This document shows positions 12,221 through 61,709 of a DNA stretch of 64,000 nt, piece after piece; the stretch's first letter is position 1; the number at the start of each line of letters is the position of its first letter. The translations under genes were made by a program, and so were the position numbers. Origin of the DNA: a virus (Duplodnaviria; Caudoviricetes); the IMG/VR virus record IMGVR_UViG_3300037041_001930; one strand, written 5' to 3'. The notes under the pieces are model-generated. The model did no database searches. It worked only from the letters and a program-made list of their open reading frames with translations, and was not told the origin of the DNA.

Positions 12221-12257
12221 TGGGCCCCCAGTCTCGACGTGGAGACAATTTCAGAGA

Positions 12258-34242: not shown

Positions 34243-35772
34243 TCAGACCTGACGGGCCGTGCGTTGGCCGAGGACGACGTGACGATCTTGGGTGCGCAAG
34301 ATGCCCAGGGCGAGGCCGACGCGTTGAGTGACGACTTCCAACCATTCCGAGGCGGCTACCGCGGCCTGATCGGGATGCCCGGGGACCAGAAACTCTTTTT
34401 CGACGAGCATCCCGGTGACCAGGCTTCTGATGTCCTGGTACAGGAAGACGCCTTGAATGTTCTCTGGAGTCGCCCCAAAGGTACCACCGAAGTCGACATT
34501 GGCGGGGCCATAGCGATCGACGAGGAGACGATCAATGAAGTTGAGGTCGATGCCAACCCGTGCCCACACCGAACCCTTCTTGGGTTCCAGGGGTTCGCGG
34601 ACCACAGATGATAGTGGGTAGTCTGAGTTCGGGGTCCCTATCTTGGAGGCATTGATGACCTCGAGATCGCGGATCGATTTCAGGGGGTACCCACTCGAGG
34701 TCCAATCGCCAACACTGGCGTCATAGGTGAGCAAGACGACATCACTGTACTGGAACGAGTTCGCAAAGGTGACGATGAGGTCACGGGGGTCCTGTCCCGA
34801 GACTACCCCTGTGGGGGCAACAATCAAACCATTGACGGTGAAGCCAAGTCCGAGGAGGTAGTCCGTGGAGACCACGGGGGTCGAAAACGACAAGGTCAGG
34901 ACTTCGGGATCGATTTGATTGAAAGCGATTACAGCGGCCTGCAGAGTGGCGTGGTTCGAGATATTGGTGGCCACGTAATCCGTGAAGGTCACCAGGGGGA
35001 AAGAACCCGTGGCGTTGGTGAGGTCACCCTTGGTGTCATCATAATTCGCCTTGACGGTGTCGCGATCACTGATGACCCCAGCCATGGTGAGCCTGAGCAG
35101 GGAGTCCGTGATGAACACGGCATCATCGGGATACGCGGCGACTCCATTGACAGTGATCCGGAACCCCTCGCCATCACGTCCCGTCGGGGATCGGATGGGC
35201 TGGTCAAAGGTGATGTCGATCTCGGTTTCCCGCGCCGTGACATCAACGACCACTGGGGATGCGGCGACACGGTGGACCACCTGAGTCGCCGTGGCCACAG
35301 AGGCGCCCTCATCATTCCAGACCACGACGGCGTAGTAATGGGTTTCCGGAGTCAGCGGGATCGGGGCACCCACGACATGAACGAAGTAGATGTCTTCAGC
35401 GAGGTTGTTGCGGCTGAACCGGGTCGTGCCCACAGGGGGCAGCCCATAAACGGACTCACCCACGGGGATCCATGGTGCGTCCTCATCGATGATGACATTG
35501 GTATTCGAGGGTACGCCCCCATAGTTCACTGGGGGCACCATCGGGGTCAGCACGGGGTCCACTGGCGGCGGCTGCATAGTTTTTGCAGCGAGATGCGCGG
35601 CGATATCGGCGTTGGCCTGGGCAAGGGCATCGGCCAGACTAACCACGCTATGGAAGTATTTGTATCCCAGGATCTCCGGGAATACCCCTTGTGGCTCATC
35701 ATGGCGCAACGTGATCGCGGAGACCATGTCGGAGATAGCTGCGAGACGAGAGATGGCATTTGGAATCGGCAT
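34243..35772 (-). CDS. Virion protein with an FN3-like and two SwmB/Ig-like domains, 509 aa
   Basis: LTPETHYYAVVVWN (FN3-like); two repeats of [I/L]T[F/L]...F.[I/F]TVNG...V...YD (SwmB-like). Confidence 0.6.
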   Translation of the reverse strand: MPIPNAISRLAAISDMVSAITLRHDEPQGVFPEILGYKYFHSVVSLADALAQANADIAAHLAAKTMQPPPVDPVLTPMVPPVNYGGVPSNTNVIIDEDAPWIPVGESVYGLPPVGTTRFSRNNLAEDIYFVHVVGAPIPLTPETHYYAVVVWNDEGASVATATQVVHRVAASPVVVDVTARETEIDITFDQPIRSPTGRDGEGFRITVNGVAAYPDDAVFITDSLLRLTMAGVISDRDTVKANYDDTKGDLTNATGSFPLVTFTDYVATNISNHATLQAAVIAFNQIDPEVLTLSFSTPVVSTDYLLGLGFTVNGLIVAPTGVVSGQDPRDLIVTFANSFQYSDVVLLTYDASVGDWTSSGYPLKSIRDLEVINASKIGTPNSDYPLSSVVREPLEPKKGSVWARVGIDLNFIDRLLVDRYGPANVDFGGTFGATPENIQGVFLYQDIRSLVTGMLVEKEFLVPGHPDQAAVAASEWLEVVTQRVGLALGILRTQDRHVVLGQRTARQV

Positions 35773-35835
35773 CGTGAACCCCTGTGCTGTAAGTGTGGTG
35801 ACTGTAGTGGCCTGGCAACCCCATCTATTATTCGA

Positions 35836-38820
35836 CTACCCAACGGTCCATGTATCCGTGAGTCTATTGATGTTAATGCTGCAAAGTTTTCCAACGTATC
35901 GATTAGCCCACATCGTGCGTGGTATGTCAAATCTAGCACGTGAGACCCATACCCCATCAGCGACCTCACCTATGTAAACATAACCCCCGAGATCTGTTAT
36001 TGGCCCTGGGCCATCTGTGTCTTGATTTGAGTAATTTATGTATAAGTCTGCCGTTAGTGTCGTTTGCCCCTCGGGTGTCACATAGCGATTTCTCCAACCA
36101 ATACCACCACCATGAAAACCACCACTATTTTCATAGGGGCATGTAATCGATACATCTGTCCAGACTAAGCCAGTTGGCTGCCCTGGGTTTGGTTTATACC
36201 CGCAACTAATCGCTACTTCGACTGCAATTGCAGATACGCAACCAGTGGGCACCTGGCTTGGTGTACGTGGGGCCAACGCGGTACACACCAGCTTTGCGCT
36301 TCCAGGAATCACTGAACATGAAACCAGGTCAACTATTTTAGTCAGCGGCTGTACTAATTGAATGTCAGTGACGTAGCATCTGTCACTAGTATCCCATTCT
36401 ACACTGGATACGGGTTCCAACCCAGGCAACAAAGAACCAGGTTGGCAGGAGCACGGTCTGGTTTCAAGCGCGGGTTCACAACTATAGAAATCACTTTTAC
36501 AACAGAAAATGTTGATGGCTTTAGAATTATCACCATGGTACGCCGCAGGGCGATGTCCTGCATAATAAGTGTTCGCTAGCTCCTCGCTAGCTGCGAATAA
36601 AAACTCAGTTTTAGTAAGAACCCAATGATATAAATCATAATTCCAGACATCAACTTGCAGAACAGCTACTCTAAAATCACAGCAATCGCAATCGCAGGAA
36701 GCTATGGGTTCTGTTGCTCCGAGGCATGCTTCACCCCGTACAAATAGCTTAACGGTAGCCGATGCACCGTCGGAGCACACCTCAACTTGCTCCGGTACAT
36801 ATTCATAGCCACCAACGCAAAGCCTTGATATCAAGGCTTCTTCGGCATCAGTGCACGCTGTCTCAATAAACACATCAGCCTTGAGATCTGTGGGTGTGAT
36901 GTCGACTCCATCATGAGTATGTGTTTCGCAATCCGAGCACGTATCCGGTGGGGGCGTGCACGCAGGGCCAGTGGGGCCACTCGGGCCAGTCGCCCCGGTG
37001 TCTGAGTCTGCGCCCCGGGGTCCAAGCCTCCCTTTTTCACCATGTGGCCCTGGATCTCCCGGATACACGTTGCCATCAAAGCCTGTGGGGCCCCTTGGTC
37101 CCCGTTTTCCGTAGTCCCCACGTGGACCCTGACGTCCTGGGTCACCATCTGGACCCCTTGGACCAGTTGGTCCCATGGGTCCATTCACGTTACCACCTCC
37201 GGGTCCCATGGGTCCCGCGGGGCCACGGGGACCCGTGGGACCCGGAGGCCCATCTTCACCGATTTCACCTGTGCTACCGTCTGGACCCTGAACCCCGGTG
37301 GGCCCCGGTGGCCCAAGTGGGCCAACATCGCCTTTAGGACCGACTCCACCGGCAACCCCTGCGGGTCCCTTGTCACCGGGGGGGCCTTCTACACCAGGGA
37401 TACCACGTGGACCCTTGTTGCCATCCAGGCCTGGGAGACCAGGTTTACCTGCGATTCCGGGGTCACCTTTGATACCACGAACACCAGGTGGCCCCTCAGG
37501 CCCCATATCACCTTGTGGGCCTACTATTCCCTGAACCCCCTGTGGACCCGTGACAGATAAACCAGTGGGGCCCTCCTCACCTTGAGGGCCCTGAACACCT
37601 TGTAGCCGCCTCTGTGGACCCTGTGCACCAGTTATACCTGGTAACCCAATGATGCCCTGCAGCCCCGTAAACCCACGTGGACCCGTGACCCCCGTAGACC
37701 CAGCGATGCCATGTAACCCCATCTGCCCCTGTGGACCCCGAGGTGCCCATGCCTGAGAATCCCATGTTGATGCCTCCGTACGTGTGTAAACAACGGCGAA
37801 ATCAACGGCGAGATAGGTATAGCCAGTGGGAACACTGATCGCCTGTGGTCGGTCTGCTAGGGTCCCTACTCCGTTCAAAGACTTAGTGCTATCGACACCC
37901 CGCGGCCCCATGACACCAGTTGGACCAGCTGCACCCACACCAGGAGGGCCCTGGATACCACGTGATCCCGGGACCCCCACTGTGCCTTGAACCCCTGTGG
38001 GGCCCACTATTCCAGTGTCCCCGTCTACTCCCTGTTGCCCCTGTGGACCCTGGAGCCCTTGGGGACCCTCGACGCCCTGGGGACCCGTGTACCCTTGTAA
38101 GCCCTGTAAACCCACTGGGCCAGTGGGGCCTAGAAGCCCAGGCCCCGTGATTCCTTGGGGGCCTCGAGGTCCGCTCGCACCTTGGGGTCCCGTGGCACCT
38201 ACTCCGACCTCAGTCCAATCTGCAATAGTGTTTGTTCGTGTGTTAGCTGTACATAACCACAGCGAGAAGTTTCCAGCGTCTTCGATCCAACGATCACCCT
38301 GTGAATACTCTCTGGTGAGAACCCACCCACGTGTTCCCCGCCATTCCTTGAACGGAGACGACAGTGACAGTGAGCTCGGGTAAATCTTAGCAGCGATTAC
38401 CCATGCTCGGATGAACCAAATGTAGAGTTCGTTGCGGTCTGTATCAAACCATCGAAACCCAGTATCAGCACGACTCAACGAAGTCGCGACACGCTGAGCA
38501 GTGGATCCGAATTGAACCTGGAGCTCGGCGATGTGCTCCGATGTACTTACGAGACCAACGAGTTCCTGTGCGGCGTGTCGGATGGCTGTGGTGCCTTGGA
38601 GACCACGAGAGAGCCCCATCAAGTATCTACCAGAAATCGAGGTATATCTGATGACTTCACTGGGGGTACCCACTAATCCCGTGCCCACTACGACGACCCC
38701 ACCCTGAGGTGGCAGCTTCGCGGCATCCACGACTTCAACAAAAGAGCCAGGCCCCTCGGTATCAGCGAGAAGTGCCGTGGCCAGGCGAGTTAGTGTGTCG
38801 TTTTGAATTGGCAGTGCCAT
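35836..38820 (-). CDS. Collagen-like fibre protein A (994 aa): anchor, collagen, Cys-rich tip
   Basis: Long Gly-X-Y runs (~36950-38200); shares its N-terminus with 39886-44214 and 44237-48148. Confidence 0.85.
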
Positions 38821-39855
38821 TTAGTACCCCAGGATCGTCTTGATTTCGCCACAAGTCTCGACTACGATAGGTTTCGCGGTTTTCCCCGCAACAATGAGAG
38901 ACCGCGCACGTAGAGTAATCGTGTCAAGAATTGGTGTAGTCACTGCCACCGCTTTGGTTCGTGCTGGAAACAGAGTGTCTCCGGCATGGTCGTGATTGCA
39001 GGGGGGCTGTGGTGGCCACTCTGTGAGATCACATGGTCCGATTTCCCCTGTGGGGCCCCTGGGTCCCGTGAGAACCCTCCCCTGGGGTCCCTGATCACCT
39101 GTATGACCAGTATCCCCCTGCGGCCCCATCGGTCCGAATCCACCATCCTTACCTGGTACCCCCTGGGTACCGCGTCCTCCCGGTGGCCCCTGGAGTCCCC
39201 GCTCACCCAGGGGTCCCTTGTTTCCCTGGGGGCCCTGGGGGCCCTGGGGGCCCGTTGATGACTTGCCGTCTGGACCTCGAGGTCCCGTGATTCCCTGGGG
39301 GCCTTGTGGACCCACACCAGTGGATCCCCGTGGCCCCTGGATCCCCCTGATCCCCTTGATACCGGGATCCCCCTGGTGTCCGCGTGGACCCTGGTCACCT
39401 TGGAGACCTGGGATTCCATCTGGACCCGGGTCTCCAGGAGGCCCCCAGGGACCCTGGGGGCCCTGGGGGCCAATATCCCCTGGTGGACCCATTTGACCAT
39501 CGCGCCCAGGATTCCCATTCTTTCCAGCATCGCCGGCATCCCCAGGAAGCCCTTTAGGTCCCTGCCGGAGTGGACCAACTGGACCCGGGTCCCCCTGGGG
39601 TCCACGGGGACCCGTGATGCCATCAAACCCAGGTATACCTGTTACCCCTGGCATACCAGTGATCCCCTGAGGGCCGGTACCCCCGGTGGCTCCTTGTGGA
39701 CCCTGAGGCCCCTGGATACCCCGTGGACCCCTAGGGCCAGATAACCCTTGTGGACCCTGAGCACCCACAGGACCACGTGGCCCCGTAGGACCCCGCGGTC
39801 CTGTTGCTCCCACTGCTCCCTTTCCAGGTAAAGGACCTAACCAGAGATCAGCCAT
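38821..39855 (-). CDS. Short collagen-like protein (344 aa) lacking the anchor domain
   Basis: Gly-X-Y from residue ~9 to ~280, then an HxH-containing C-terminal module. Confidence 0.85.
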
Positions 39856-39885
39856 GGCATCACCTTGATTTCGAGATTACAGAGT

Positions 39886-42800
39886 TCATGCGATGAGATC
39901 CCACTCTACCAACGTGGTCTCCCAGTTAGTATTATCACCTGTACCTCTTGCAGATCCATCTGCTCTCAAACATAGGTAGTGGTCTGAGCCCACCCCCAGT
40001 TTCACGGCTGGAGCAAGTGCGGCAACAGGAACCGCTGCAGTGGACACCACTGTTCCGTCTGCTTTACGCCCAAAGGTTGTGATCACGTTACACGCGATCT
40101 CCACGATCCCGGTCCACGCCCCGATATTACATTGCCCGTTGGTGTTTGACCCCGTGGCGACCAGGGTGCCGTCGGCCTTCAATCCCACTGAATGCTGGGA
40201 CCCCGCTGCGATCGCGATGATACCTGTCCACCCCGAGACATTGCACTGCCCCGCGGAGTTCTGCCCCGTGGCCACAACTGTGTTGTTTGCCTTGAGGCCC
40301 AGTGTGAAATACCCTTGGTAACCCGCAGCAATAGATATCAGAGTTGTCCAGGCCCCCACGTTGATCTGCCCGTTTACGTTGGATCCCACTCCCACCGCGG
40401 TACCATTGGCTTTCCTACCCACTGAGAAGTTGGGGCCACTGGATACCTGGGCGATGTCGGTCCAGGCACCGACATTGCATTGCCCATAATCGTTCAACCC
40501 TGTGGCCACAACTCCACCAGAAGACAACAGCCCCAGCGTGGTCTTCGCACCACACGCGATCTGAGTTACCCCAACCCATGCCCCCACGTTACATTGGCCG
40601 ACATCGTTGTTACCCTTGGCAAAAACAACTCCATCCGCACGGAGGACAACTGTGTTTCTGCTGCCACCAGCGATTCCAATTAGGTTATGCCACCCACTAT
40701 TGAACTCGAGTTCGCCATAATAAGTGTAACCAATAGGATGGGTAGTGGACACCAGGGTTCCATCTGCTTTAACACCGACGACGGAGTATTTCCCCACAGA
40801 AATCGAGACAATGTCTGTCCACCCAGAAACATTCAGCATCCCCTTGCTATTATCCCCAACGGCGACCACTGTACCATCACTCTTTAACCCAACAGTGATG
40901 CTCTGCCCACATTTTACGGATACAAGTCCAGTCCATGTCGAGACGTTCATTTCACCATAATTGGATAAACCAGTTGCTCTTGCAGTGCCATCGGCTAGGA
41001 CGGCAACGAGATGGTGCTCCGCGATATCAAAATCAACAACATTCACGAAGCTGGCGAGGTCCAGCAGGCCACCGGGCTGGTAGTAACTGTAATCCCCACC
41101 AGTTGTCGCCAGCAGAGTCCCATTCGATTTCAAGGCGACTACACAGCCATAATGTGTACGAACCTTCGTGATTCCAGAGAACGGGAATATAGAGATCTGA
41201 CCGTCGGCATTGTTACCAGTGGCGACCACAGTGCCATCCGGCTTTAGCCCGATGGTATGTGTAGGCCCGCATGCGATCGCCGAAATCCCAGACCACGTGG
41301 TCACGTTAGTCTGGCCATCAGTGTTCTGCCCAGTGGCTACTACGGTACCGTCTGTACGCAGGCCAACCGAGTGATTCCGCCCACAGGCCACCGAGGCTAC
41401 TCCTGTCCAAGGGGTAAACCCACGAAGACCGATGTCGTTGGTACTCACCCCAACCACGGAGCCGTCTGCACGACGCCCGACGAGATGGCGAGGTCCCGCG
41501 TAGATCTCCACGATCCCGGTCCATGAGTTTGCGGCGTAGAGCGGATTCTCGGGGTTTGACGTTGAAACGACTACAGTCCCATCTGCATGCAAACCTGCCG
41601 CGAAGATATAGCCGGCAGCAATGGCCACGATCCCCGACCACATCGACACTGCATCGTAGACTTCTGAGTACCCGGTGTTCCCTGCGTACTGGACGTACCC
41701 CGAGGAGTCCAGCGCTAATGAGAAATCCTCCCCAGCTGCAATCGCGACGATACCATAGAACCAAGAAAAGTTTAACTGTCCAGAGTAGTTGCTGCCCACC
41801 CCACGAACAAATCCGCCGGAATCCAACGCTAGGGTGTGGTATGGCCCCATGGCAATCGAAACTAATCCATACCATGGGTACTGGTACCCATAGATATCGT
41901 CATATAAATTCAATTGACCGTAGTCATTCTTACCCACTGCGATCGCGTTTCCGTACTCCTCATAAATCGCAATAGTGGCGTATTCCGCGCAGTAAATCTT
42001 CTGGACACCGGACCACCCGGATACCGCGCACTGCCCATAGTTATTCAGCCCCGCAGAGAGCACGTTCCCGGCGAGTACCCCGACGGCATGCCCATTTCCA
42101 ACTGCAATGGGCCACACCCCAGGCCCCCATGTTGGAATCGCGCTGAGTTGCCCATAGGCATTACTCCCCAAGGTGAGGTACGCACCAGCGTTGTTCGTGG
42201 CAACCACGTTTTCATACCCACATGCGATATGAAACTGTGCAATAGATGACCACCCCGCGGTGTTCGTTTGCCCATAAGTGTTGTCACCTGCACCAGTCAC
42301 GGTACCGTCCGTTTTGACCCCTAAACTGTGGTTATCCCCACATGCGATATCAGTGATACCTGCCCAGCCGGATACCGCGATTTGGTTATTCGCGTTGTTC
42401 CCTGCACCCACAACAGTACCGTCAGATAGCAACCCAAGGGAGTGCGCGCCACCCCCACTAACCTTGGCAACCCCTGCCCAAGCCGAGACGTTGAGCTGGC
42501 CAGACGTGTTTAACCCAGTGGCAACAACAGTCTGATCTGCGCGGAGGCCTAGTGTGTGGTTGTACCCGCACGCCACCTGGGTAAGCGCTGCCCAGGTGGT
42601 CACATCACATTCGCCGTTCACGTTGTACCCGGTGCCCACTGCCGCGCCGTCTGCCGTCATCCCTATCGTGAACTCGAACCCGCACGCGAGCTGGGCGATA
42701 TTGGACCACCCCGATGTATTAAGCTGCCCATTGACGTTTCTACCCTTGGTTGCCACAGTCCCATCGTTTTTGATGCCAACTGTGCTCTGGTTACCAGCGG

Positions 42801-44214: not shown

Positions 44215-44236
44215 GGTTCTGTCCGGGGTGTGTTAG

Positions 44237-47200: not shown

Positions 47201-48148
47201 TGCAGTCAGACCTGAACCAGTGGGCCCCTGCGGTCCCGTGATACCCTGGGGTCCCCGGGGTCCCGTGGCACCGGCAACACCAGTCAAACCCTGTGGCCCC
47301 GTGAGTCCCTGGGGCCCAGTGGGACCCTGTAAACCCTGATAACCCATGGGACCCTTGGGACCCAGGGGTCCCATGATCGGCGATGTGTCTCCAATAGGCC
47401 CCTGGACCCCCTCAGGGCCTACTTCACCGATGTCACCTCGTGGTCCCTGTGGCCCCGTGGACCCCGGCGTTCCTGGTCCGGTGTCACCACGGGGCCCCGT
47501 GGGACCAAGAGGTCCCTGTGGCCCCGTGGCGCCAACAAGAATCGGAGACCAGTCCGATAACTGTCCCGTTGGGGTCACCGTACAAATATGTAGAGTGTTG
47601 TCGTCTACCCTTAACCAGCGATCTCCAAAAGAATATGGAAGATCCACAATATCTTCAGCCGGTGCTATGAAATCCTTTATACTCCGGCTTGGCCCAGTTT
47701 TCCCACTACCATGTGTTAGCACGGCAGCATTAAACTTGCTGCCATCCCACCTCGTAAATATATCCCCTGGGGTGTCTAGGTAGATGTATCCACGTTCACG
47801 TAACCCCAGGGTCAACTCGGCACGCTGCTCCGGAGTCATTTCATGAATCCGGAGTTCCTGGATGTGTTCAGCTGTAATCGTGGACCACAGCTTGGTACCG
47901 ATGTCCCATGCCCTCGGCGTCGTGCCCCCGAACCCACGACCATTCTGCGGCAGGAGTTCAACGAAGAGGAGCCCTGCACCAACGTTCTTGTTTGACAGCC
48001 GGATGAGTTCGACCCCGGTGGAACGTGACCCCAGGGCAACAATAATTGGTGTCGCTATCTTGGAGGCGTCGCTGACTTCGATCACGGTTCCCGAGACCCC
48101 CAGCGGGGCCGTAAGCGTGACAACGGCGTTGTTCTGGATCGGTAGCAC
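44237..48148 (-). CDS. Collagen-like fibre protein C (1303 aa) with Ser/Gly/His tandem repeats and Cys-rich modules
   Basis: Anchor, collagen (~46380-47540), then (SG)n, (SGSSHLP)n, (SQPH)n and (SGSHxS)n. Confidence 0.85.
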   Translation of the reverse strand: MLPIQNNAVVTLTAPLGVSGTVIEVSDASKIATPIIVALGSRSTGVELIRLSNKNVGAGLLFVELLPQNGRGFGGTTPRAWDIGTKLWSTITAEHIQELRIHEMTPEQRAELTLGLRERGYIYLDTPGDIFTRWDGSKFNAAVLTHGSGKTGPSRSIKDFIAPAEDIVDLPYSFGDRWLRVDDNTLHICTVTPTGQLSDWSPILVGATGPQGPLGPTGPRGDTGPGTPGSTGPQGPRGDIGEVGPEGVQGPIGDTSPIMGPLGPKGPMGYQGLQGPTGPQGLTGPQGLTGVAGATGPRGPQGITGPQGPTGSGLTARQGDQGPQGPQGLQGAQGYTGPRGIDGAVGPQGEQGVPGNTGLEGPVGPQGPPGQQGPQGPQGITGVGPTGPQGLQGLKGPPQVNPGPQGPQGDKGPQGAPGADGAPGNPGGPGPQGPQGPAGIQGPRGARGPMGKVIKGPRGLPGPTGPPGATGEQGDRGERGDVGVSVTGPRGITGPIGPRGNDYDGPPDGSTGPQGIPGPKGEVGDVGPRGLTGPDGTQTGPRGIQGFDGVPGLMGPAGDTGPTGPVGPAAAELVGPDGITGPTGPRGDLGDAVGKPECAPHQHCKSDCICDGILGTGDPKDGGDSLAPEAVITENLCTTTLDATLGLTNTLTVDGVGWCPDVIKACVSTGFKCIGVLVPCGAGPECDCDVTECPTQSGSGSGSGSGSGSGSGSGSGSGSGSGSGSGSGSGSGSGSGSGSGSGSGSGSGSGSGSGSGSGSGLVSGSSQQPSGSSQQPSGSSHLPSGSSHLPSGSSHLPSGSSHLPSGSSHLPSGSSHLPSGSSHLPSGSSHLPSGSSHLPSGSSHLPSGSSHLPSGSSHLPSGSSHLPSGSSHLPSGKHSGSSHLHSGSSHTPSGKHSGSSHLHSGSSHTPSGKHSGSSRHSSHSHSQPYSHPCECNCDLMKELVISEYTFNCDTMLWELTDRVVWAGPFRDVPDGWYPGAEVQVVGTMRFTDTGDRIKCVGTCVVCTHDGGEGVSVADITLDPVADPDPCRFVYMKSVIVDPCTQFDCTRYVMREVSPEAGNPPDPNTNPPTGWKGPVRSGCCLSQPYSQPYSQPHSQPHSQPHSQPHSQPSGHGSSRSVSSGKSRSVAHASSGSHHSSGSHVSSGSHHSSRSHVSSGSHHSSGSHVSSGSHHSSGSSTPYEECGCSMPPTEFDFNFSIIEIPSIGDCNLNLRLRQSFPRKWVLDVGSFDLTCEGLPGGSTVLNAHLTFDEKNDCLATLVIVIRGKTTTWVLERHLPDCKFHTKTPGSGLPGNPLIGSEVIEN
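44625..44757. repeat. 36 bp (2 x 18 bp) tandem repeat encoding SGSHVS/SGSHHS
   Basis: Three near-identical 36 bp units from 44625 plus a degenerate unit. Confidence 0.9.
44821..44896. repeat. 12 bp tandem repeat encoding SQPH/SQPY
   Basis: GGCTGACTATGT, about 6 copies. Confidence 0.9.
45394..45521. repeat. 54 bp tandem repeat encoding SGSSHTPSGKHSGSSHLH
   Basis: Two full units (45394-45501) and a partial third. Confidence 0.9.
45522..45857. repeat. 21 bp tandem repeat: 14 x SGSSHLP plus 2 x SGSSQQP
   Basis: CCACTGGGTAAGTGGGATGA(C/T) x14 over 45522-45815, then two variant units. Confidence 0.95.
45871..46058. repeat. 6 bp tandem repeat GATCC(C/T) x ~31 encoding (Ser-Gly)n
   Basis: Uninterrupted hexamer array with synonymous C/T variants. 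Confidence 0.95.
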
Positions 48149-48159
48149 TGGAGCCCCTG

Positions 48160-48480
48160 TTAGATCGTAGTGGCCACGAGAGCCTTGGTCTTCCTGACTT
48201 CATCGACATATCCGCGTAACACGACTTTATTGCGGTAGACATCCCCCGTGGACAGGACTCGGAATCTCACGATGGCCTGGGTGAACCCGATGATGGGGTC
48301 GACCACATTGGCCAAGGAGAACGTGTAGAGCCCGGGGTCCAGCAGACACTCCTGCGCCATGTTATCGGAGAGCGCAAGGAGTGTCATGGTTTCCATATTC
48401 AGGATCTGGACCTCGACGGCACCGAGCCCCGGCTGGAACTCGGCACCAACAATCACAGTCTCATGGCCGTCATATCTCAT
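48160..48480 (-). CDS. Small Ig-like hypothetical protein, 106 aa
   Basis: RBS AAGGA; beta-rich (PGLYTFSL). Confidence 0.65.
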   Translation of the reverse strand: MRYDGHETVIVGAEFQPGLGAVEVQILNMETMTLLALSDNMAQECLLDPGLYTFSLANVVDPIIGFTQAIVRFRVLSTGDVYRNKVVLRGYVDEVRKTKALVATTI

Positions 48481-48489
48481 AGTGTTTCC

Positions 48490-51201
48490 TTAGTCCCATT
48501 CGAGGCGACGTGCGCCCAGAGTTGATAAACCACCGCCACTGACGTTGACGACAAGGGCGAGGCGAGACGTCGCCTGAGCCGGAGCGTTGCCTCCAGGAGA
48601 GGTGTCCACGTCGACCACGGTCAGGGCGACCACGGCGTTGCGCCCATTGTCGGCCTGGGGGTATGTATGCGAGAACGTGGGTCCAGTTCCCGAGTTATCA
48701 AATCTGGCCAGATTCCACCACGTCGGGAACGCGGGGTCATTGACACCTAGAGGTGGCAGTGCTGTCATCGATGACCGGATCTCCCAGGCATACGATGCAA
48801 TCGCGGCAGGGGTACCCCCCGATTCGATTTCGTAGTCGTTGGCGGTACGGAAGTGCTGAACCCCGGCACCATAGGTGATATTGGCACCGATAACTGAGGT
48901 ATCCAACCAGACCTTGGTGGGGTTCGTGGTATCGATGTCCACGATGGGGATGACTTTGGTGATCGCCCCGGCGAGATCAGTGAGGACGAGAACCGCGTGC
49001 CCCCCGGTGCGGAGACCACCATTGATGAGGTTGGGATCCGTGAATGCGATTGAGGGGTGCCCGGCCAAAATTGTGCCCGCTGCGGCGAGGACTGGATCGG
49101 TGCCCAGGGGATCCCCTTGCACCCAGACGACATCGGTGCCGTAGGAACGTCGACCATCGAAGACGTATGTTTTCGCGCTGCCAGGTACGGATGCAGGTGA
49201 GGGAATGATTGCTGCGGGGTTCAGGTTGTCCACCGCGCCGGTCTGCGAGTAGACCACTGGAGTAGCCCCAAACAGTTTCCAGGGCTGGCCAATCGTATTT
49301 GACCACCCCGTGGTGGACTTCACGGTAGCCCTGACATCCAGGGAGTCGTTGACCCGTTGTGGCAGCTTCAGAGGTTTTGATGGGAACCCGATAGCGATGG
49401 TGTCCGAGGGCTGGACAAGGCCAGGCAGCGGGGAACCCACAACTAAAACAATCTGGTCATCACTAGGCACACTTGCGATGGGGTACCATCCGCGCATGCC
49501 ACCGTTGACGACGACGAAGAAAGATCCCGGCCAGGCGTGTAAACCGATACCAGGGGAATTGATGGTGATCCCGGGGCCAACTGCGCTACCCCCGAGCTGA
49601 GTGTAATCCAGTCCCACACCTTCCCAGCCAAAACCACCCGCATTGATCTCCCACTCCCAGCTCGTGTGGTTGCCACCCCCGGGTTCGTTGGAGATAAAGA
49701 ACCAGTCGGCTGACGTGTAGACCTGGGTTGAACCCGTCACCGCGATAACAATGGAATCCACTGACGCCGAGGCCACAATGGGGTAACTGTGAAGAATTGG
49801 AGCCGCGAGACCGCCACCAGCAGGGGTCTGCGTGACCACGTTGAGGAACCCTCTGATCTCCCCTGCGGCGAGATCTCCGGCCTGGATACCGCGACCAATG
49901 TTGGTCACGTTAATCGTGAGGTTTCCGCCTATGGCGGCGTTGAGATCCACGTTACCCGTGAATCTCGAGTAGATCTGCCCAGACGACCAGGGGTCATTGC
50001 GTACCGCGACTCTACCAGTGCCGTTAAGGGCGACCACGGAGCCCGCGGGGGCGTCCTGATAGCGTGCGGCGACGACAAGAGTGTTGTCGGCACCGGAGAG
50101 CACAGGGGACACCATGGCGACGTCACGAATCGTGTTGGGGGCTGAGGACGAGAACACTGGGGAACCCGAACTCGCGACGAGATCGTTCCAGGAAGCCCAC
50201 TCACGTGCAGCGAAACTGAAACCAGGGGCTCGATAGGTAGTCCGGAGATAGAACGTCGCCGTGGCCGTTCTTGCCGGGTTGAGTTCACCAAGCGCACCGA
50301 CACCGGCGTCATCCTTGGATGTCAGCTGCACCGGCCAGATGTCGATATGATTCCAGGTATGCGTCTGACTCGGGAAACCAGGTCCGGGGTAAACGACTTC
50401 GGTGCCCCCGACAAGGGTTCCACCTGCACCGGGAACTAGGGTTCCAAAAGCGTTGCCGTAGCGCGATCCAATCGAGAACGCGAAACGGGTGCCGTCTACA
50501 GGGGAGCCGTCTGAATTCTGGACCCCACCACTGGGGCGGTGAGCCCCGCTGATTTGCTCGAAGAGGACCTGAGCAAACTCGGAGTAGAACTGCCCCGTGG
50601 TCCGCCCACCCGCGGTGACTCGATTCTCGTTGTCACTTGAGCTGTTTCCAAGGATCCTGGCGACTGCACGAGAGATATCAGTGGGGTTCACGGGATCGAG
50701 GCTGACCCCGGTGATGACTGCACTGGGTCCCTGGTTGAGTTGGAGATCAATGTTTCCGTTGATGTCGCCGACACCACCGCCGTCTGGGGTAGCGTTCCAG
50801 GCATCTCCAGTCAGCGTGAATAGAACACTGGCGAACTGGTCAGCGGTGGCATAGTTGGCTATCGCTGACGCCCCATTGTCATATTTGAAGCCGAGGAGAT
50901 GGTCGCCACCGCTGCCGTCTGTCGGCGACTGGTTCTCGTATGCAGAACCCGGGGGATCCACCGGGGTGACATCGCTCTTTCTCCAGAAGAGCACCACGAG
51001 TTTATCACCGTTCTGGCAAACCCAGTTGGTGCCCATGAAATTGTCTTCACTGATCGCGACTTGATAGATGCCTGCGTTATCGGTGAGGCGGACCACACGC
51101 CGCCACCGTGTTACAGTACCTGGGCGCGAGTAAATCGCGGTGTAGTAAACACCAGGAGTGTTGACCCCTGCAACCTTGACGAAACCTTGGGCGGTGGACA
51201 T
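48490..51201 (-). CDS. Large virion surface protein with PKD/Ig-like domains, 903 aa
   Basis: PKD hallmarks YVFDGRRS, IASYAWE, GPTFSHTY...VALTVVD; RBS AGGAG. Confidence 0.65.
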   Translation of the reverse strand: MSTAQGFVKVAGVNTPGVYYTAIYSRPGTVTRWRRVVRLTDNAGIYQVAISEDNFMGTNWVCQNGDKLVVLFWRKSDVTPVDPPGSAYENQSPTDGSGGDHLLGFKYDNGASAIANYATADQFASVLFTLTGDAWNATPDGGGVGDINGNIDLQLNQGPSAVITGVSLDPVNPTDISRAVARILGNSSSDNENRVTAGGRTTGQFYSEFAQVLFEQISGAHRPSGGVQNSDGSPVDGTRFAFSIGSRYGNAFGTLVPGAGGTLVGGTEVVYPGPGFPSQTHTWNHIDIWPVQLTSKDDAGVGALGELNPARTATATFYLRTTYRAPGFSFAAREWASWNDLVASSGSPVFSSSAPNTIRDVAMVSPVLSGADNTLVVAARYQDAPAGSVVALNGTGRVAVRNDPWSSGQIYSRFTGNVDLNAAIGGNLTINVTNIGRGIQAGDLAAGEIRGFLNVVTQTPAGGGLAAPILHSYPIVASASVDSIVIAVTGSTQVYTSADWFFISNEPGGGNHTSWEWEINAGGFGWEGVGLDYTQLGGSAVGPGITINSPGIGLHAWPGSFFVVVNGGMRGWYPIASVPSDDQIVLVVGSPLPGLVQPSDTIAIGFPSKPLKLPQRVNDSLDVRATVKSTTGWSNTIGQPWKLFGATPVVYSQTGAVDNLNPAAIIPSPASVPGSAKTYVFDGRRSYGTDVVWVQGDPLGTDPVLAAAGTILAGHPSIAFTDPNLINGGLRTGGHAVLVLTDLAGAITKVIPIVDIDTTNPTKVWLDTSVIGANITYGAGVQHFRTANDYEIESGGTPAAIASYAWEIRSSMTALPPLGVNDPAFPTWWNLARFDNSGTGPTFSHTYPQADNGRNAVVALTVVDVDTSPGGNAPAQATSRLALVVNVSGGGLSTLGARRLEWD

Positions 51202-51260
51202 TCGTGATCTCCTGTAGTCTGGATACTAAGCCAGTGTCTGTCGGGGAGAAGCCTGTGCTC

Positions 51261-52298
51261 TCACGCCGCATTGGGACCGGGGAGGTCGTCAGCATTCTGC
51301 CGATTCGTGCGTTTCGTGGCCTTCGAGCCCTCGTCATGGTAGATACCGTTGGTTCGATTCTTGGTCTCATTCAGCCCAGTGTTTAGGCAGTTCTCGACAC
51401 GAATCTTAGTGGAGGCCACACGTCGCCCCACGGCTTCATCGGTGTGATCCGTGCTCTCGGAAGCCGACACTAACATTTCGCGGATGAGTGCCCAGATGAG
51501 ATCAACTGTTAGGTAGGATCCATCGGGATGACTCGGAAAAAATAGCTTGTGGTCAATGGAGAGCTGGTAATTCGCGAGGCCGCGTTCGGCGTGGAAGAAT
51601 ATCGCATTGAGATCCCTGCAGACACGATCCGTGATGAACGGTGCCTCGCGCTTCCAGTTGTTCTTCTGAATCGAGGTTGTGACTACATCGAAGACTTGGG
51701 GCTTCACGGAGCGCTCAAAGCACTCCTCGATGATGCGTATGGAGTCAGCGATGTTAATGACCCCCTTCTGGCGATCCAGGAGTTCACGTAACACGGATTG
51801 CAGACTGATGAAGGTTTGGTCTAGCCTGCGCTCCCTGGTGTTCTCGCGCTCCGTACTCGTGCGATCGTGGGCTGACAGGGCACTCGCAAAGGACTCGGCC
51901 TGGGAGGTCGTCAATGTCTCGAGTCTGGAGCCATGATCAACCATGTCCTTGCGGAGCCCGTGGATCTCTTTACCCAGCCCTTCAATGCAGGCCCCGTGGC
52001 GTTGGAGCCCACGCATTACGAGCTCATTGGAGTCCGTTATCGCCTTGGCGATGCTCTCGTTGGATGCCGCGATGAGTTCTGCTCTACGGGTTTTCCCGTC
52101 CTGCTCGATCTCGAGCTTCTTGTTCTCAGCTGTCTTCGCATCTTTCTTGGAGCGCAGCCATAACCAGAACGCGATGACACCCAAGACCAGGACGATGATC
52201 AGGAACACGATCCCACCTGTCTCCAAGCGGTTAGCTGCGTTCATGATACGTTCAGATGCCGCCGCGGCGTCTGCTGGATTCGTGGGTAGATCGGCCAT
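51261..52298 (-). CDS. Single-pass membrane protein with coiled coil, ~345 aa (holin/anchor-like, function unknown)
   Basis: Hydrophobic GGIVFLIIVLVLGVIAFWLWL followed by RSKK and a long helical region; start MADLP at 52298. Confidence 0.6.
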   Translation of the reverse strand: MADLPTNPADAAAASERIMNAANRLETGGIVFLIIVLVLGVIAFWLWLRSKKDAKTAENKKLEIEQDGKTRRAELIAASNESIAKAITDSNELVMRGLQRHGACIEGLGKEIHGLRKDMVDHGSRLETLTTSQAESFASALSAHDRTSTERENTRERRLDQTFISLQSVLRELLDRQKGVINIADSIRIIEECFERSVKPQVFDVVTTSIQKNNWKREAPFITDRVCRDLNAIFFHAERGLANYQLSIDHKLFFPSHPDGSYLTVDLIWALIREMLVSASESTDHTDEAVGRRVASTKIRVENCLNTGLNETKNRTNGIYHDEGSKATKRTNRQNADDLPGPNAA

Positions 52299-52359
52299 GT
52301 TGTTTCCGTGCTGGTGGTGTCGCCACAGAATACCGGAGATCCGCGTTACGCCAATGGGC

Positions 52360-52965
52360 TCACCAAGGCGCCGGGGCCTCATCGAGACCGAGATTATTCA
52401 ACCGAACCAGAATGCGCGCCCCATCGACGAGGGCCAACGGGGTATGCGCAGTCCCCAGGGTGATTCGTACCCCACGTGGCTCCCATTTGTAGTCACCGTC
52501 GTCATCCCAGAACAGGGGGAAGTTGGCTTGAGAGTTCAGAGGAGTCGCCCCGGGGAAGAAGTCCCAAACCGTGGCAGCCTTCTGGTCGATCATGGAGCAT
52601 CGGGTCACGATGTCGCCGGAGACCACTGCACCTAGGCCCTGGCGTTGGTTGATCTGGATAATCAGGCTGTGCACCGTGGTGACCAGACCCCAGAAGGGGT
52701 GTGGCGCCATCCGGGTCATCCAGCCACCGGGATGCCCAGATGCCGCGAGGACAACATCGGGATCCCATTCCATCTCTGCAGTGCTGAAGTCCCCATCGGT
52801 GAGGTATGGTAGCGTGACTTCAGATGTCCTGGTGACACCACCGGGTTCAATGGGAAGCCAGAGCACGTTGTCTTGACCGTCGCCACCGGGGCCAGCATCA
52901 GGGATCTGGTTTTTAGCTGCCAGCGAATGGATGAATGGACCCATGAGGCCTTGAAGAGTTGGCAT
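52360..52965 (-). CDS. Hypothetical virion protein, 201 aa, paralogous to 54021-54947
   Basis: Shared W.[FY]FPGATP.N...N[FW]....DD..D..E.RG motif. Confidence 0.65.
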   Translation of the reverse strand: MPTLQGLMGPFIHSLAAKNQIPDAGPGGDGQDNVLWLPIEPGGVTRTSEVTLPYLTDGDFSTAEMEWDPDVVLAASGHPGGWMTRMAPHPFWGLVTTVHSLIIQINQRQGLGAVVSGDIVTRCSMIDQKAATVWDFFPGATPLNSQANFPLFWDDDGDYKWEPRGVRITLGTAHTPLALVDGARILVRLNNLGLDEAPAPW

Positions 52966-52974
52966 CGTGACCTC

Positions 52975-53970
52975 TCAGACGTCGTTTTCTCGGAACAGGA
53001 ATTGGTGGATGCTCAGGTAACTCGAACCCTTCCAGGTAATCGAAACCTTGACGGTGTAGTTGGTCTCGAAGATGAGATCACTGGCACCTGTCTTCACTAC
53101 TTTGAAGATGCCACGGGAATCCGCACCAGAGATCCAGACTTCAGCACCTGCGCTGTGGTAGGCGCGTGTGGTCCCCAGGGAGGCCCGGGTGACGGTTACC
53201 AGGGTTGGGGCGTCCACGGTGACCACTGTCATGAGTTCATTGTCGCATGCCAGGATTCTTCCAGCGGTGAGCCCTGCGGTCGAGGGTACCGTGAGCTGAA
53301 CGGCACCCGCACTGCTGCCAAGGGGGACACTGAGGAGCTGGGAGTACACTGGGGTATCGGTGCCCACGAAGATTGGGGAGACCCCATCGACTTCGTAGAG
53401 TTCCACTGTGGCGTGGTGCAGGAACTTGTCGGTGATCGCGGCCCCATTGACCTGGAGCGAGGGGTAGAACCCGATGAGATCGTTGGCGGGGACCCCGGTA
53501 TCCGTGTACTCGAACCCCAGGAGGCACATGGACACCGTACTCGAGCCCAGACGGTTGTAGATCGAGGTGAGGTCGCGGTGGTCGTCGCCAGTGATCGCGT
53601 CGATTTGATCTTCCCCACCACCAAAGACGAGTTTGTTGATGTCCCGATTATCCGCATTGGCGTCATCATAGATCTCGATGAGCAAGGCGTGTTCTTCGTA
53701 GGGCGGGAACTTGGTGGCGAAGGTGCCGGCACCATTGGCTTGCTCGTAGGCATACCCGATGTCGATGCTATAGCACCGCAAGAGGGGCTGCGGGGTGCAG
53801 GTCTCATACCCCGTGATGTCCAGGGCTTCACCGGTGAGCCCACTGGCGAGCAACTTGAGCACGCGAGCTCTCACGGTTCCCGTGGGGGCCACGGGGAGGA
53901 CGCCGACGGCGATGTGTCCGGCGTTCACGGTACCTGGGGTCGCATTGGTCACGAATGATGGATATTTCAC
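52975..53970 (-). CDS. Hypothetical virion protein, 331 aa, containing the fibre-anchor-like module
   Basis: ELMTVVTV...VTVTRASLGTTRAYHSAGAEV matches the fibre N-termini. Confidence 0.65.
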   Translation of the reverse strand: MKYPSFVTNATPGTVNAGHIAVGVLPVAPTGTVRARVLKLLASGLTGEALDITGYETCTPQPLLRCYSIDIGYAYEQANGAGTFATKFPPYEEHALLIEIYDDANADNRDINKLVFGGGEDQIDAITGDDHRDLTSIYNRLGSSTVSMCLLGFEYTDTGVPANDLIGFYPSLQVNGAAITDKFLHHATVELYEVDGVSPIFVGTDTPVYSQLLSVPLGSSAGAVQLTVPSTAGLTAGRILACDNELMTVVTVDAPTLVTVTRASLGTTRAYHSAGAEVWISGADSRGIFKVVKTGASDLIFETNYTVKVSITWKGSSYLSIHQFLFRENDV

Positions 53971-54020
53971 AGGTCTCTCCGATACAGGAAATCTTGGTGT
54001 TGGTCGTGAGCTGACAATGC

Positions 54021-54947
54021 CTACCAGGCCCAGAGCGAGGTCAGCGGGGTGAGATGAATGATGACTTCGCCGGCATCACGCAAAGCGCTGGGATTGGCTT
54101 CCCTGGTGAGTTCTATAATGAACCCCCTGGACTCCTTGTCGCCGTCTTCGTCGTCAACAATGGGAGTCCAGTTCGGGATCGCATTGATTGGAGTGGCCCC
54201 AGGGAAGTAGGTCCACCTGGATTTCTCGTAGACGCTACCACGGGGGCCGCCAACACTATCAACCCGAGTCGTCGTATAGGGGTGATAGGGGTTACAGTAG
54301 GCATCGTAGATCATAGGGGTCCCCGCGGGATGGTACCCCGCGGAGGTCCCCAGTCTGCCACGCACGACTTGGACTTGATAGCCGGATACCGCGGTGACCC
54401 GCATGGCTTCGTAGCCGATGACGGCGTAGTGCCCCTGGATAAACAGCCCACTCACAGGGGTCGTGAGATTGAACACAGTAGTCGATGGCAATATAGTTTC
54501 TGCGAGGATGCGATTCCCGACGGCACCGGCGCTGAGGACCCCGAGGGCGCGATGATTGGGTTCGTCCCCGGGGCGCCGGTAGTGAATGTTGAGTTGGCGG
54601 ACGATATCAGAGATCCGAGTCGGTAGCCTGGGCCATGTGCCCACGGGGTACGCGGGGTCACCACCGGTATTGATGTCAGAGTAACCCCAGGATCTCGAGT
54701 CGTCATCCCACTTCATCATGGCCAGGGATAGTGTCTCGGCTCCCAGGGGCTGCGGGAAGCATGCCGCGGGGATCGAGATGTCATGCGACAGGTTTACGTT
54801 GGCGCCCACGGCATCACGGAAGCCCTCGGGGAGCACGATATCAAGGGTTCCGCAATACTGCACTTCAGTGGGCTCCGTGAGGGGAAGGCCAGCAAACGTG
54901 GCGTTATCGGTAAGAGGCAGGGCACCGGGTATAATGTTCATGGCCAT
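54021..54947 (-). CDS. Hypothetical virion protein, ~308 aa, with the fibre-anchor-like module
   Basis: EAMRVTAV...VQVVRGRLGTSAGYHPAGTPM; start ATG 54947, just after the upstream stop. Confidence 0.65.
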   Translation of the reverse strand: MAMNIIPGALPLTDNATFAGLPLTEPTEVQYCGTLDIVLPEGFRDAVGANVNLSHDISIPAACFPQPLGAETLSLAMMKWDDDSRSWGYSDINTGGDPAYPVGTWPRLPTRISDIVRQLNIHYRRPGDEPNHRALGVLSAGAVGNRILAETILPSTTVFNLTTPVSGLFIQGHYAVIGYEAMRVTAVSGYQVQVVRGRLGTSAGYHPAGTPMIYDAYCNPYHPYTTTRVDSVGGPRGSVYEKSRWTYFPGATPINAIPNWTPIVDDEDGDKESRGFIIELTREANPSALRDAGEVIIHLTPLTSLWAW

Positions 54948-54949
54948 GG

Positions 54950-55711
54950 TTATGGCCCCATGTTCAGCACGCGGGTCACCGACGTCAAGGTTTCTGAAAG
55001 GGGAGTCGAGTCCTGGGGTGCCCATGCAAACGTGAGCGTGAGCACGGCACCATCACGAATTCGTGTGATCCTCTTGATATGGAGGAGTCCATTGGGGTGC
55101 CAGGTATAGGAGACCACAAATAACACTGCTGTCTTCGTGGCATCCGAGTAATGCGTTTTAGTCGTGAGATCCCCGGTTACCGGGCTCCACGCGTACTCGG
55201 TGTAATAAGCCTGGTTGTCGAGCTCGAACTCGATGTCGAGGCCAATCTGGTCACAGCAGTCACCACTCGGAGTCGGCCCGGGTTCCCCTGAAGTCGCCCC
55301 GGGGGCGTACGTCAGGATACCCTTAACCGCCGTGATCTCGCGTGGAGTCTGGGAGTCGAAGACGCCGATGAGACGCCACTCGAGGTCAATGGGGTTCAGG
55401 GTGTCGAGAACATTGAAGGCGGGGCTGCCACCATGGATCTGGTACGGGATGCGACCTGCGTTGGGGTTCTCGAGATCCCAGGTCGCTGCCCCGGGGACAT
55501 AATTCACGCTCAGGATCAGAGCACCCTTCTCGGTGAAGACACCGAGACGGGGATACGGGGCCTTGAGGACCAAGGGTTCAGAATCGTATTCGAGGACAAG
55601 ACGTACGCTGAGATCATCTGCGGAATCCAGAACCAAGGGGGTCTGGGGACGCAGGGGGACCAGCGTGGTCAGCGCGGACTTCAAATCGAGGCGGAGCTCA
55701 GCGATTCGCAT
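54950..55711 (-). CDS. Hypothetical virion protein, 253 aa (BppU/Ig-like N-terminus)
   Basis: RBS GGAG; beta-sandwich-like pattern. Confidence 0.6.
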   Translation of the reverse strand: MRIAELRLDLKSALTTLVPLRPQTPLVLDSADDLSVRLVLEYDSEPLVLKAPYPRLGVFTEKGALILSVNYVPGAATWDLENPNAGRIPYQIHGGSPAFNVLDTLNPIDLEWRLIGVFDSQTPREITAVKGILTYAPGATSGEPGPTPSGDCCDQIGLDIEFELDNQAYYTEYAWSPVTGDLTTKTHYSDATKTAVLFVVSYTWHPNGLLHIKRITRIRDGAVLTLTFAWAPQDSTPLSETLTSVTRVLNMGP

Positions 55712-61705: not shown

Positions 61706-61709
61706 TTTA

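Follow-up and report, generated by a model that had tools for sequence, protein, structure and literature searches.

What is a set of genes for long collagen-like fibres doing between the capsid gene and the head-to-tail adaptor gene of a contractile-tailed phage, and where on the virion would such fibres be carried? The question is raised by the IMG/VR record IMGVR_UViG_3300037041_001930, from which we analysed a stretch of 64,000 nucleotides (hereafter the window). The phage has a genome of ~216 kb and, between these two genes, an optional collagen-fibre cassette of ~20 kb. A first-pass annotation, made from the letters alone, had read twelve genes of this interval as a modular appendage apparatus of the head or collar. 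Our verdict is that the cassette is an accessory multi-fibre receptor-binding module whose products are probably extra host-binding fibres; collar mounting is plausible, the neck (i.e., the head-tail junction) being the most likely site at a probability of roughly 40%.

Four proteins of the cassette contain collagen. Three are long (fibres A, B and C, with 994, 1442 and 1303 amino acids [aa]) and one is short (344 aa), and all match the Pfam family Collagen (PF01391; E 3.9e-43, 7.9e-13, 1.4e-30 and 5.2e-35, respectively), with long uninterrupted Gly-X-Y runs that total 107, 35, 114 and 81 triplets and score above the gathering threshold of Pfam. With 0.29 nm allowed per residue (PMC3368898), the stalks would measure ~93 nm in fibre A, 30 nm in B, 99 nm in C and 70 nm in the 344-aa collagen. 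Cys clusters come directly after the final triplets of fibre A, fibre C and the short collagen, whose triplets begin at residue 13 and whose C-terminal domain resembles the post-collagen parts of A and C; from the Gly-X-Y repeat together with these clusters we infer a triple-helical trimer. Beyond the stalks the three long fibres differ. Fibre A ends in a Cys-rich tip, and fibre B in RCC1 repeats (RCC1_2 PF13540, E 5.2e-123; PF25390, E 5.3e-67), of which a self-built hidden Markov model (HMM) counts exactly 28 blades of ~38 aa each in tandem. In fibre C, Tandem Repeats Finder located in-frame arrays of 6, 12, 18/36, 21 and 54 bp that encode Ser/Gly/His repeats, which are accompanied by Cys-rich modules. 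Three collagen fibres with one anchor and three tips, a short collagen without the anchor, 28 RCC1 blades and Ser/His/Gly repeats had all been claimed by the first-pass annotation, and all of them stand.

The three long fibres are united by a common N-terminal region of ~200-220 aa, the anchor, which comprises two domains and is 31-34% identical between them in BLASTP and alignments. HMMs of the two halves found domain 2 only in the three fibres of the window, and domain 1 in just five of its proteins: the fibres, g331 (E 1e-4) and g334 (E 1e-3), the last two being those already suspected of carrying the same module (the remaining cassette genes are named here by the length of their open reading frames [ORFs] in aa). 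The tail and baseplate genes of the window lack both domains. The anchor was modelled with AlphaFold2 from a 53-row alignment, at high confidence (predicted local distance difference test [pLDDT] 89.6), and the best match of the model in the PDB is the N-terminus of the 'putative tail fiber protein' of GP4 in the portal-tail complex 8JOV (template-modelling [TM] score 0.64, root-mean-square deviation [rmsd] 2.2 and probability 1.00 by Foldseek; Z 10.6, 110 of 116 residues aligned and rmsd 4.7 by VIA). The anchor HMM also retrieved the GP4 tail fibre from PDB sequences (E 5.8e-5), the sole sequence-level match that covers the whole anchor; domain 1 is thus homologous to the N-terminal docking domain of that fibre. 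Weaker matches were to the N-terminal domains of the tailspikes AP22 gp54, LKA1 gp49 and phi297 gp61.

Domain 1 has a far wider distribution than the anchor as a whole. Among 1.84 billion representative proteins, an anchor profile matched 3024 at E <= 0.001; the full two-domain anchor was rare, domain 1 was frequent as the N-terminal part of proteins large and small, and within giant proteins it was repeated up to 19 times. Similar inserted beta-barrels are present in the tail-tip J proteins of JBD30 and Chi, the tube protein of Mystique and the baseplate/tip protein of R4C, and domain 1 also resembles insertion domains of capsid proteins (VP1 major capsid protein 9in6_M, Z 9.3; P22 I-domain, Z 6.1). 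Because it recurs in tip, tube, capsid and giant proteins, domain 1 is a mobile beta-barrel, which at the N-terminus of a fibre is the virion-binding end; the idea that it is a specific 'socket key' was rejected, the module being too widespread. A word-indexed homologue search with the anchor returned close relatives only, and a scan of IMG/VR with a pattern from the anchor alignment found no contigs beyond those already known as relatives. Stand-alone two-domain anchors of ~200 aa are encoded in two relatives (L006:12685-13287 and L025:3773-4399), in the former ahead of non-collagen fibre-like genes, which suggests that a stand-alone anchor could act as a separate adaptor between virion and fibre.

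Relatives of the genome, found in IMG/VR and other assemblies and designated here by G and L numbers, establish how the cassette is distributed. DNA and protein searches of GenBank phages yielded no match to the island, to a 511-aa scaffold-like protein, or to the anchor, g903 or g331. Synteny in related metagenomic phages, which had been proposed as a check, is borne out: the island is collinear in G001 (IMGVR_UViG_3300032236_001859; 216,043 bp with direct terminal repeats, rated 100% complete and collinear with the window), and further copies are present in L024 (209.6 kb, island proteins 40-60% identical, in an assembly with frameshifts), in L026 and L027 (from contigs of 200.6 kb and 61 kb) and in the short L025. 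Core genes of the window and G001 are 90-99% identical, fibre B 76% and the 344-aa collagen ~66-75%; in fibre A the N-terminal part is 71% and the middle 51% identical, and the tip is unrelated and longer (1198 aa in G001). All collagen matches in G001 lie inside the island. Two observations show that fibre lengths from metagenomes need care: the fibre C homologue of L005/L023 is cut off by the end of its contig (IMGVR_UViG_3300045131_002121, position 72854), and in the pilon-polished assembly L024 the fibre genes are broken into several frames.

By contrast, whole-record searches of four relatives that are 95-100% complete (G003, G004, G006 and G007; 179-191 kb) found no anchor, collagen or g903, and in relatives with 71-77% identity in the capsid protein the capsid and adaptor genes are only 4-10 kb apart. 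This shorter interval holds TPR/OGT-like glycosyltransferases, HNH/EndoVII-like genes, Ala/Thr-rich Ig-like proteins, a multi-pass membrane protein and long Pro/Ala/Lys-rich proteins, and shares with the window only a 157-aa gene and the C-terminal part of g509, both of which are core genes for that reason. The block at 35836-55711 is therefore, by comparison of gene content, a lineage-specific accessory cassette. The four relatives without it keep a 593-aa baseplate-proximal protein, in which the N-terminal ~330 aa are conserved and the C-terminal half diverges in distant relatives; judged from these sequences, this is the usual pattern of a receptor-binding fibre. Because these relatives lack the cassette and retain this protein, the cassette would be an extra, added to a virion already equipped with a baseplate fibre. 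Its tips turn over, in that the fibre A tip has been replaced relative to G001 between flanks that are 90-99% identical.

Within the cassette, the anchor is inherited together with a set of partner proteins. The smallest version, that of L006 (83% identity in the capsid protein), contains a g253 homologue, an ORF equivalent to the C-terminal ~105 aa of g903 (E 1.3e-18), a g106 homologue (L006:12341-12652; 43% identity, E 1e-25) and, just after the latter, the stand-alone 200-aa anchor. The window, G001 and L006 have all four of these elements (g253, the C-terminal domain of g903, g106 and the anchor), and L024 and L026 have most of them; in L025 the order is g331, g201, g903, a 110-aa ORF and the stand-alone anchor. 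Wherever it can be read, the run from the g903 C-terminal domain through a ~100-aa ORF (g106 where shown) to the anchor is conserved, so the three proteins would be expected to act together physically.

Because the cassette is dispensable in relatives, its products might have nothing to do with the virion and might instead be moron-like collagens exported to, or displayed on, the infected cell with the help of the membrane protein g373, and the non-structural cargo of the same locus in relatives (OGT-like glycosyltransferases, HNH/EndoVII) fits such a role. We consider this very improbable: the anchor has its homologue in a fibre domain that docks on the virion, hydropathy reveals no strongly hydrophobic N-terminal segment of the signal-peptide type in the fibres, and the genes are tightly packed in a late head-to-tail operon, in which promoter and terminator scans showed no enrichment of sites and no intergenic signal.

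If the fibres are virion components, the next question is what they dock on. A shell covered with fibres (a 'hairy' head), in which the anchors bind the capsid or a decoration protein, would account for the position of the cassette after the capsid and 203-aa genes in the head operon and for the likeness of domain 1 to capsid insertion domains; in Salmonella phage Arash, likewise, the gene for an Ig-domain protein (gp227, Big_2) follows the capsid gene. However, the major capsid protein (MCP) shows neither an insertion nor a change of length that follows the cassette among the relatives compared: the copies of the window and G001 share 99% identity, and those of fibre-less relatives 71-83%. 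Moreover, the whole anchor has its sole sequence-level match in a tail fibre, and three fibres with one anchor would better suit a few symmetric sites than the many sites of a capsid, all of which makes docking on the shell improbable.

The neck, which we prefer, is suggested by the protein that adjoins the cassette. The gene for this 295-aa protein, which starts 3 nt after g509, lies between head and sheath/tube genes in both the window and Arash. Its AlphaFold2 model (mean pLDDT 70) consists of a beta-sandwich (residues 1-150) followed by a C-terminal bundle with two long helices. In an exhaustive structural alignment, residues 154-295 matched the adaptors of Pa223 (9nwi_A, Z 9.8), T4 (gp13/gp14 entry 9lu4_D, Z 9.6) and SU10 (7z47_A, Z 8.1), as well as those of A4, VP1, phage 812, crAss001, GP4 and PhiM1 (with 9k09_d, 8zkk_B, 8q01_b, 7qog_B, 8jov_G and 8vb4_M among the entries matched); the Z values are moderate, and their agreement across the adaptors of many phages is consistent. 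Residues 1-150 matched the N-terminal domain of TP901-1 BppU (3uh8, Z 10.1), the Sf14 neck (9c39_I, Z 9.3) and baseplate proteins of 80alpha and NF5, and Foldseek also listed the Bas63 connector chains 9mt4_G/H. By tblastn the C-terminal half matches gp233 of Arash and proteins of three Vibrio phages, and leads from the ESM Atlas (Phage_connect_1, HCP and Mu gp36, at 0.81-0.89) fell below threshold. We accept the 295-aa protein as a predicted portal adaptor with an extra collar/BppU-N-like domain. The Vibrio phages (D69, D181 and D148; 187 kb) are, with Arash, the only isolates to show similarity, which in their case is confined to this half of the adaptor.

Such collars have precedents: Ig-like adaptor collars hold fibres in GP4, DEV, Bas63, Sf14 and XM1 (PMC12609058, PMC11445570, PMC13730344), podophage adaptors and Ig-like collars serve as fibre docks (PMC13730344, PMC11445570), and the collars of the myophages T4, XM1, Bas63 and Sf14 bear whiskers (PMC12609058). 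Taken together with the position of the best anchor homologue, which in GP4 was resolved within the portal-tail complex just beneath the portal, with the beta-sandwich of an adaptor that adjoins the cassette, and with the confinement of domain 1 to proteins other than the tail and baseplate proteins of the window, these precedents favour mounting on a collar around the adaptor. In the mechanism that we propose, fibres A, B and C are most likely homotrimers, each composed of a docking anchor, a collagen stalk (~93, 30 and 99 nm), which in A and C would be stapled by a Cys knot, and a distinct distal tip (Cys-rich in A, 28 RCC1 blades in B, Ser/Gly/His arrays with Cys modules in C). Proteins g253, g334, g331, g201, g903 and g106 would constitute the docking platform or assemble it, and g331 and g334 may additionally be short appendages that use the anchor module. 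As auxiliary first-contact adhesins or receptor binders, the fibres would supplement the conserved baseplate fibre, and they would diversify through tip exchange and repeat slippage.

Several points weigh against a neck location. The helical matches of the adaptor (Z 7-10) fall in the middling range of the tool and its model is of moderate confidence (pLDDT 70); its beta-sandwich is also present in fibre-less relatives; and, among GenBank phages, no isolate carrying the cassette was found. Because domain 1 occurs in tip and baseplate (JBD30, Chi), tube (Mystique) and capsid proteins (VP1, P22 I-domain), the docking site cannot be named from its fold. Gene order helps little: in T4, the baseplate genes for gp9-gp12 and the fibritin gene (wac) lie directly upstream of the neck genes 13-15, so that a position before neck genes proves little about location, and we rejected gene order as proof of virion position on account of this counter-example. 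A complex prediction of the adaptor and g253 with the anchor returned a score of 0.00, which is no answer and which we counted neither for nor against binding.

The T4 arrangement is also what lends credence to the reading that these are ordinary tail fibres of the baseplate periphery or distal tail, encoded apart from the inner baseplate genes, the more so as the adaptor here matches the T4 gp13/gp14 entry (Z 9.6). The PHROG families matched by the fibres, g331 and g334 carry the annotation tail fibre or tail protein, the GP4 homologue of the anchor bears the name tail fibre, and domain 1 is found in the baseplate/tip proteins of JBD30, Chi and R4C. However, the PHROG matches of the fibres fall almost wholly inside the collagen repeats, the clade already has a conserved baseplate-proximal fibre that cassette-less relatives keep, neither anchor domain is present in a baseplate or tail gene of the window, and the GP4 homologue is seen in the portal-tail complex of a podophage, directly under the portal. 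On balance we regard ordinary tail fibres as somewhat unlikely. The earlier interpretation of the locus is thus upheld in part: a modular system of several fibres, built on one type of anchor with tips that can be exchanged and distinct from the baseplate fibre, stands, whereas its head or collar site is a plausible proposal, and nothing in the analysis points to the ligands suggested for it (matrix, mineral or eukaryotic surfaces). Stronger still is the claim that the cassette represents a new class of neck apparatus in contractile-tailed jumbo phages, in which a platform around a collar-bearing adaptor would hold three collagen fibres of ~30-100 nm, one with a four-propeller RCC1 head; this we offer as a tentative and rather unlikely proposal. 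Were it true, these phages would have a second, head-proximal organ of host recognition that acts before the baseplate engages.

Table 1. Genes of the cassette and its surroundings in the 64,000-nucleotide window.
Feature	Position	Strand	Description	Basis
Prohead protease	60305-61849	-		phrog_18299 match
Major capsid protein, 312 aa	56671..57609	-	upstream flank, conserved core	PDB 6wkk profile, likeness to Arash MCP, conservation
157-aa protein	55741..56214	-	core gene outside cassette, role unassigned	same-locus homologues in fibre-less relatives
g253	54950..55711	-	first cassette gene, candidate platform protein	only in fibre-bearing lineages
g334 (probably 308 aa)	54021..54947	-	anchor domain 1 and C-terminal domain common with g201
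g331	52975..53970	-	anchor domain 1 in a non-collagen protein	domain-1 HMM, E 1e-4
g201	52360..52965	-	paralogue of g334 C-terminal domain, without anchor module	BLASTP, E 1.8e-8
g373 (probably 345 aa)	51261..52298	-	single-pass membrane protein	one strong hydrophobic helix
g903	48490..51201	-	largest platform candidate	homologues only in island-bearing contigs
g106	48160..48480	-	small protein always directly upstream of anchor gene	position in G001, L024, L026
Fibre C, 1303 aa	44237..48148	-	anchor, 114 triplets, Cys knot, Ser/Gly/His tandem arrays, Cys-rich modules
Fibre B, 1442 aa	39886..44214	-	anchor, 35 triplets, 28 RCC1 blades
Anchorless collagen, 344 aa	38821..39855	-	81 triplets and Cys-containing C-terminal domain
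Fibre A, 994 aa	35836..38820	-	anchor, 107 triplets, Cys knot, Cys-rich tip
g509	34243..35772	-	repeated beta-rich segments and conserved C-terminal domain; core gene
Portal adaptor (predicted), 295 aa	33352..34239	-	N-terminal beta-sandwich; downstream flank	AlphaFold2 model and structural alignment
Baseplate J/gp6-like wedge protein	16102..17703	-		PF04865, E 1.9e-18; phrog_6, E 1.4e-24
593-aa baseplate-proximal fibre candidate	12258..14039	-	conserved core fibre	in 5/5 relatives

The setting of the cassette is largely as the first-pass annotation had it (Table 1). The whole region is encoded on the minus strand, including the twelve ORFs at 34243-55711 with small gaps between them, so that these genes are co-oriented between the MCP block and the adaptor; since g509 is conserved across the clade, however, it lies outside the variable cassette, and the island is one gene smaller than the twelve originally assigned to it. 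Transcription proceeds from the protease through two scaffold-like proteins and the 203-aa protein to the MCP, then through 124-aa and 157-aa genes to the twelve genes, and, once past these (55711 down to 34243), from the 295-aa adaptor to a 343-aa and a 259-aa protein, an 896-aa sheath candidate and a 165-aa tube candidate; beyond it are a putative tape measure, hub and baseplate genes, and a fibre-like gene set (7503-14039). Both flanks are identified as claimed, the adaptor by the helical domain of its model and the capsid gene because a profile of clade homologues matches the MCP Gp27 of 6wkk (E 0.0039), because its product is 27% identical to the MCP of Arash (gp226; E 2.5e-22), and because it is strongly conserved in relatives (71-99% identity). 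The sheath region downstream of the adaptor is homologous to that of Arash, and the Baseplate J gene is, as had been noted of the baseplate genes, distant from the island, at 16.5 kb. Most flanking tail genes have no Pfam or PHROGs match, and single-sequence and profile searches of PDB sequences with the adaptor, sheath and g903 gave none either. The 157-aa protein matches L009:16642-16965 by BLASTP (E 1e-6).

Among the non-collagen proteins, labels fared less well. The 509-, 903- and 253-aa proteins match no Pfam family even at E 10, and the PKD, FN3/SwmB and Ig domains that had been named in the island are thus not recovered in them. For g509, weak ESM Atlas leads to Big_5, fn3 and SWM_repeat (0.77-0.85) fell below threshold; its C-terminal 230-340 aa are conserved near the adaptor in L007-L011, and a Hoc-like decoration or neck protein is possible. 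Protein g253, which has no PHROG match either, is 85-87% identical in L005/L012, ~52% in L024 and 35-37% in L006. For g903, neither PHROG nor PDB profiles gave a match, a word-indexed homologue search returned close relatives only, and an ESM Atlas look-up gave nothing. Protein g334 matches phrog_1101 'tail protein' (E 9e-5), and its C-terminal 60 aa are 42% identical to g201, which is conserved in L024 and L025; g331 matches phrog_1101 (E 1.5e-7) and phrog_9851 'tail fiber' (E 1.5e-5). For g331, g334, g201 and g903, no Pfam, PHROG or PDB-profile match named T4 gp9-gp12, with which no dedicated comparison was made. The membrane protein attributed to the island is present as g373, with a single strong hydrophobic helix (hydropathy maximum 3.11 at residues ~49-79 of the 373-aa ORF). 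The longest ORFs at 54021-55025 (334 aa) and 51261-52382 (373 aa) probably over-call their starts, the homologues in G001 and L026 beginning internally, at 308 and 345 aa; with these starts the apparent overlap with the upstream genes vanishes.

The locus is variable in other ways as well. TPR and OGT-like glycosyltransferase genes, assigned by eye from translations, stand beside Ala/Thr-rich Ig-like genes in fibre-less relatives (L007:11048-12952, L008:14175-17865, L009:14061-15974, L011:11732-13246) and may indicate that the virion is glycosylated. Next to the capsid gene, on its downstream side, several relatives have HNH/EndoVII-like genes (L010:5085-5837, L009:11166-12185, L008:12564-13343), an Endonuclease_7 gene on the opposite strand (L026:2770-3525) and, in G001 (127169-129018), extra genes of 279 and 337 aa, and the site looks like an insertion hotspot of the homing-endonuclease type. 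Between the g509 homologue and the adaptor, some relatives encode long basic, Pro/Ala-rich, low-complexity proteins (321-949 aa; L007:15882-18731, L009:18679-19644, L011:15041-16324), of which the window has none. Distal to the baseplate, the window holds five tandem genes (7503-12220; 292, 441, 250, 235 and 359 aa) without a Pfam or PHROG match; by eye, the 292-, 250-, 235- and 359-aa proteins have an INGVxPDxxGN-type motif near the C-terminus in common, and several of the five an N-terminal 'YPF' segment. The 441-aa member was found in two of the five relatives searched.

Receptor-binding fibres set the host range of phages, and a self-contained cassette of 20 kb would show that large phages can add extra adhesins onto an otherwise conserved virion, with the common anchor, collagen stalk and swappable head forming a natural scaffold and the platform proteins, which lack known relatives, offering good structural targets. 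If the fibres are mounted at the neck, the concept of collars and whiskers would widen from short stabilising whiskers to long-range receptor-binding organs, and the adaptor-mounted fibres of podophages would be linked to the necks of myophages.

The closest counterpart of the anchor is the tail fibre of the Ralstonia podophage GP4 (8JOV chain 1, 439 aa), in which the N-terminal domain is homologous to anchor domain 1, the similarity reaching into domain 2, and likewise forms the end with which a fibre docks on the virion, as seen in the structure of the portal-tail complex; GP4 differs in being short-tailed and in having a fibre without a collagen stalk. Several receptor-binding proteins per virion, with conserved N-terminal anchoring modules and exchanged distal domains, are a feature of multi-receptor phages such as CBA120 (TSP1-4) and K64-1, where they form branched tailspike complexes on the baseplate from modules like those of T4 gp10. 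The cassette differs in its collagen stalks and in platform proteins without a known family.

Extra fibres at the level of the adaptor or head-completion proteins, borne on an Ig-like ring, are known from T4 fibritin (wac), XM1 gp40 and the collars and whiskers of Bas63 and Sf14 (PMC12609058). The N-domain of the 295-aa adaptor resembles the Sf14 neck (9c39_I) and Bas63 connector chains and is also found in fibre-less relatives; no sequence relation was found between the cassette and wac or the Bas63 whisker. The whiskers described so far are short coiled coils or small dimers, whereas the cassette would provide collagen fibres of ~100 nm with large tips. Arash (OQ632216; PMC10585845) is the nearest isolated relative, though a distant one that matches in the MCP, the C-terminal half of the adaptor, the 343-aa protein and the sheath. 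Its layout is alike (L019, 148319-180708), with the MCP followed by a 12.7-kb stretch of large proteins, the adaptor and the sheath, and that interval contains no homologue of the collagens, anchor or platform proteins. The products of this stretch (gp227-gp232, including the 2548-aa gp229) were detected in virion preparations, in a proteome list that also holds many enzymes; Arash packages RNA polymerase subunits (PMC10585845).

The nearest parallel in overall plan is provided by EPclA-D, prophage fibres of E. coli O157:H7 that consist of an N-terminal phage-fibre domain, a collagen region and a C-terminal trimerising or binding domain, the first being the proposed site of virion attachment and the domains being shuffled between genomes (PMC3368898). 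Their N-terminal domain differs (PfN and a coiled coil), their collagen is shorter than most in the cassette (111 residues, vs. 105-342 in the cassette fibres), and they are single fibre genes beside the tail genes of lambdoid prophages, in contrast to the multiple fibres of the cassette (PMC3368898). The plan of anchor, collagen stalk and tip is thus already known from EPclA-D (PMC3368898); what is new is the scale, with three fibres including a 28-blade RCC1 head, the co-inherited set of six or seven proteins without a known family, the accessory, cassette-like nature shown by comparison with complete relatives, and the link between a myophage cassette and the fibre anchor of a podophage.

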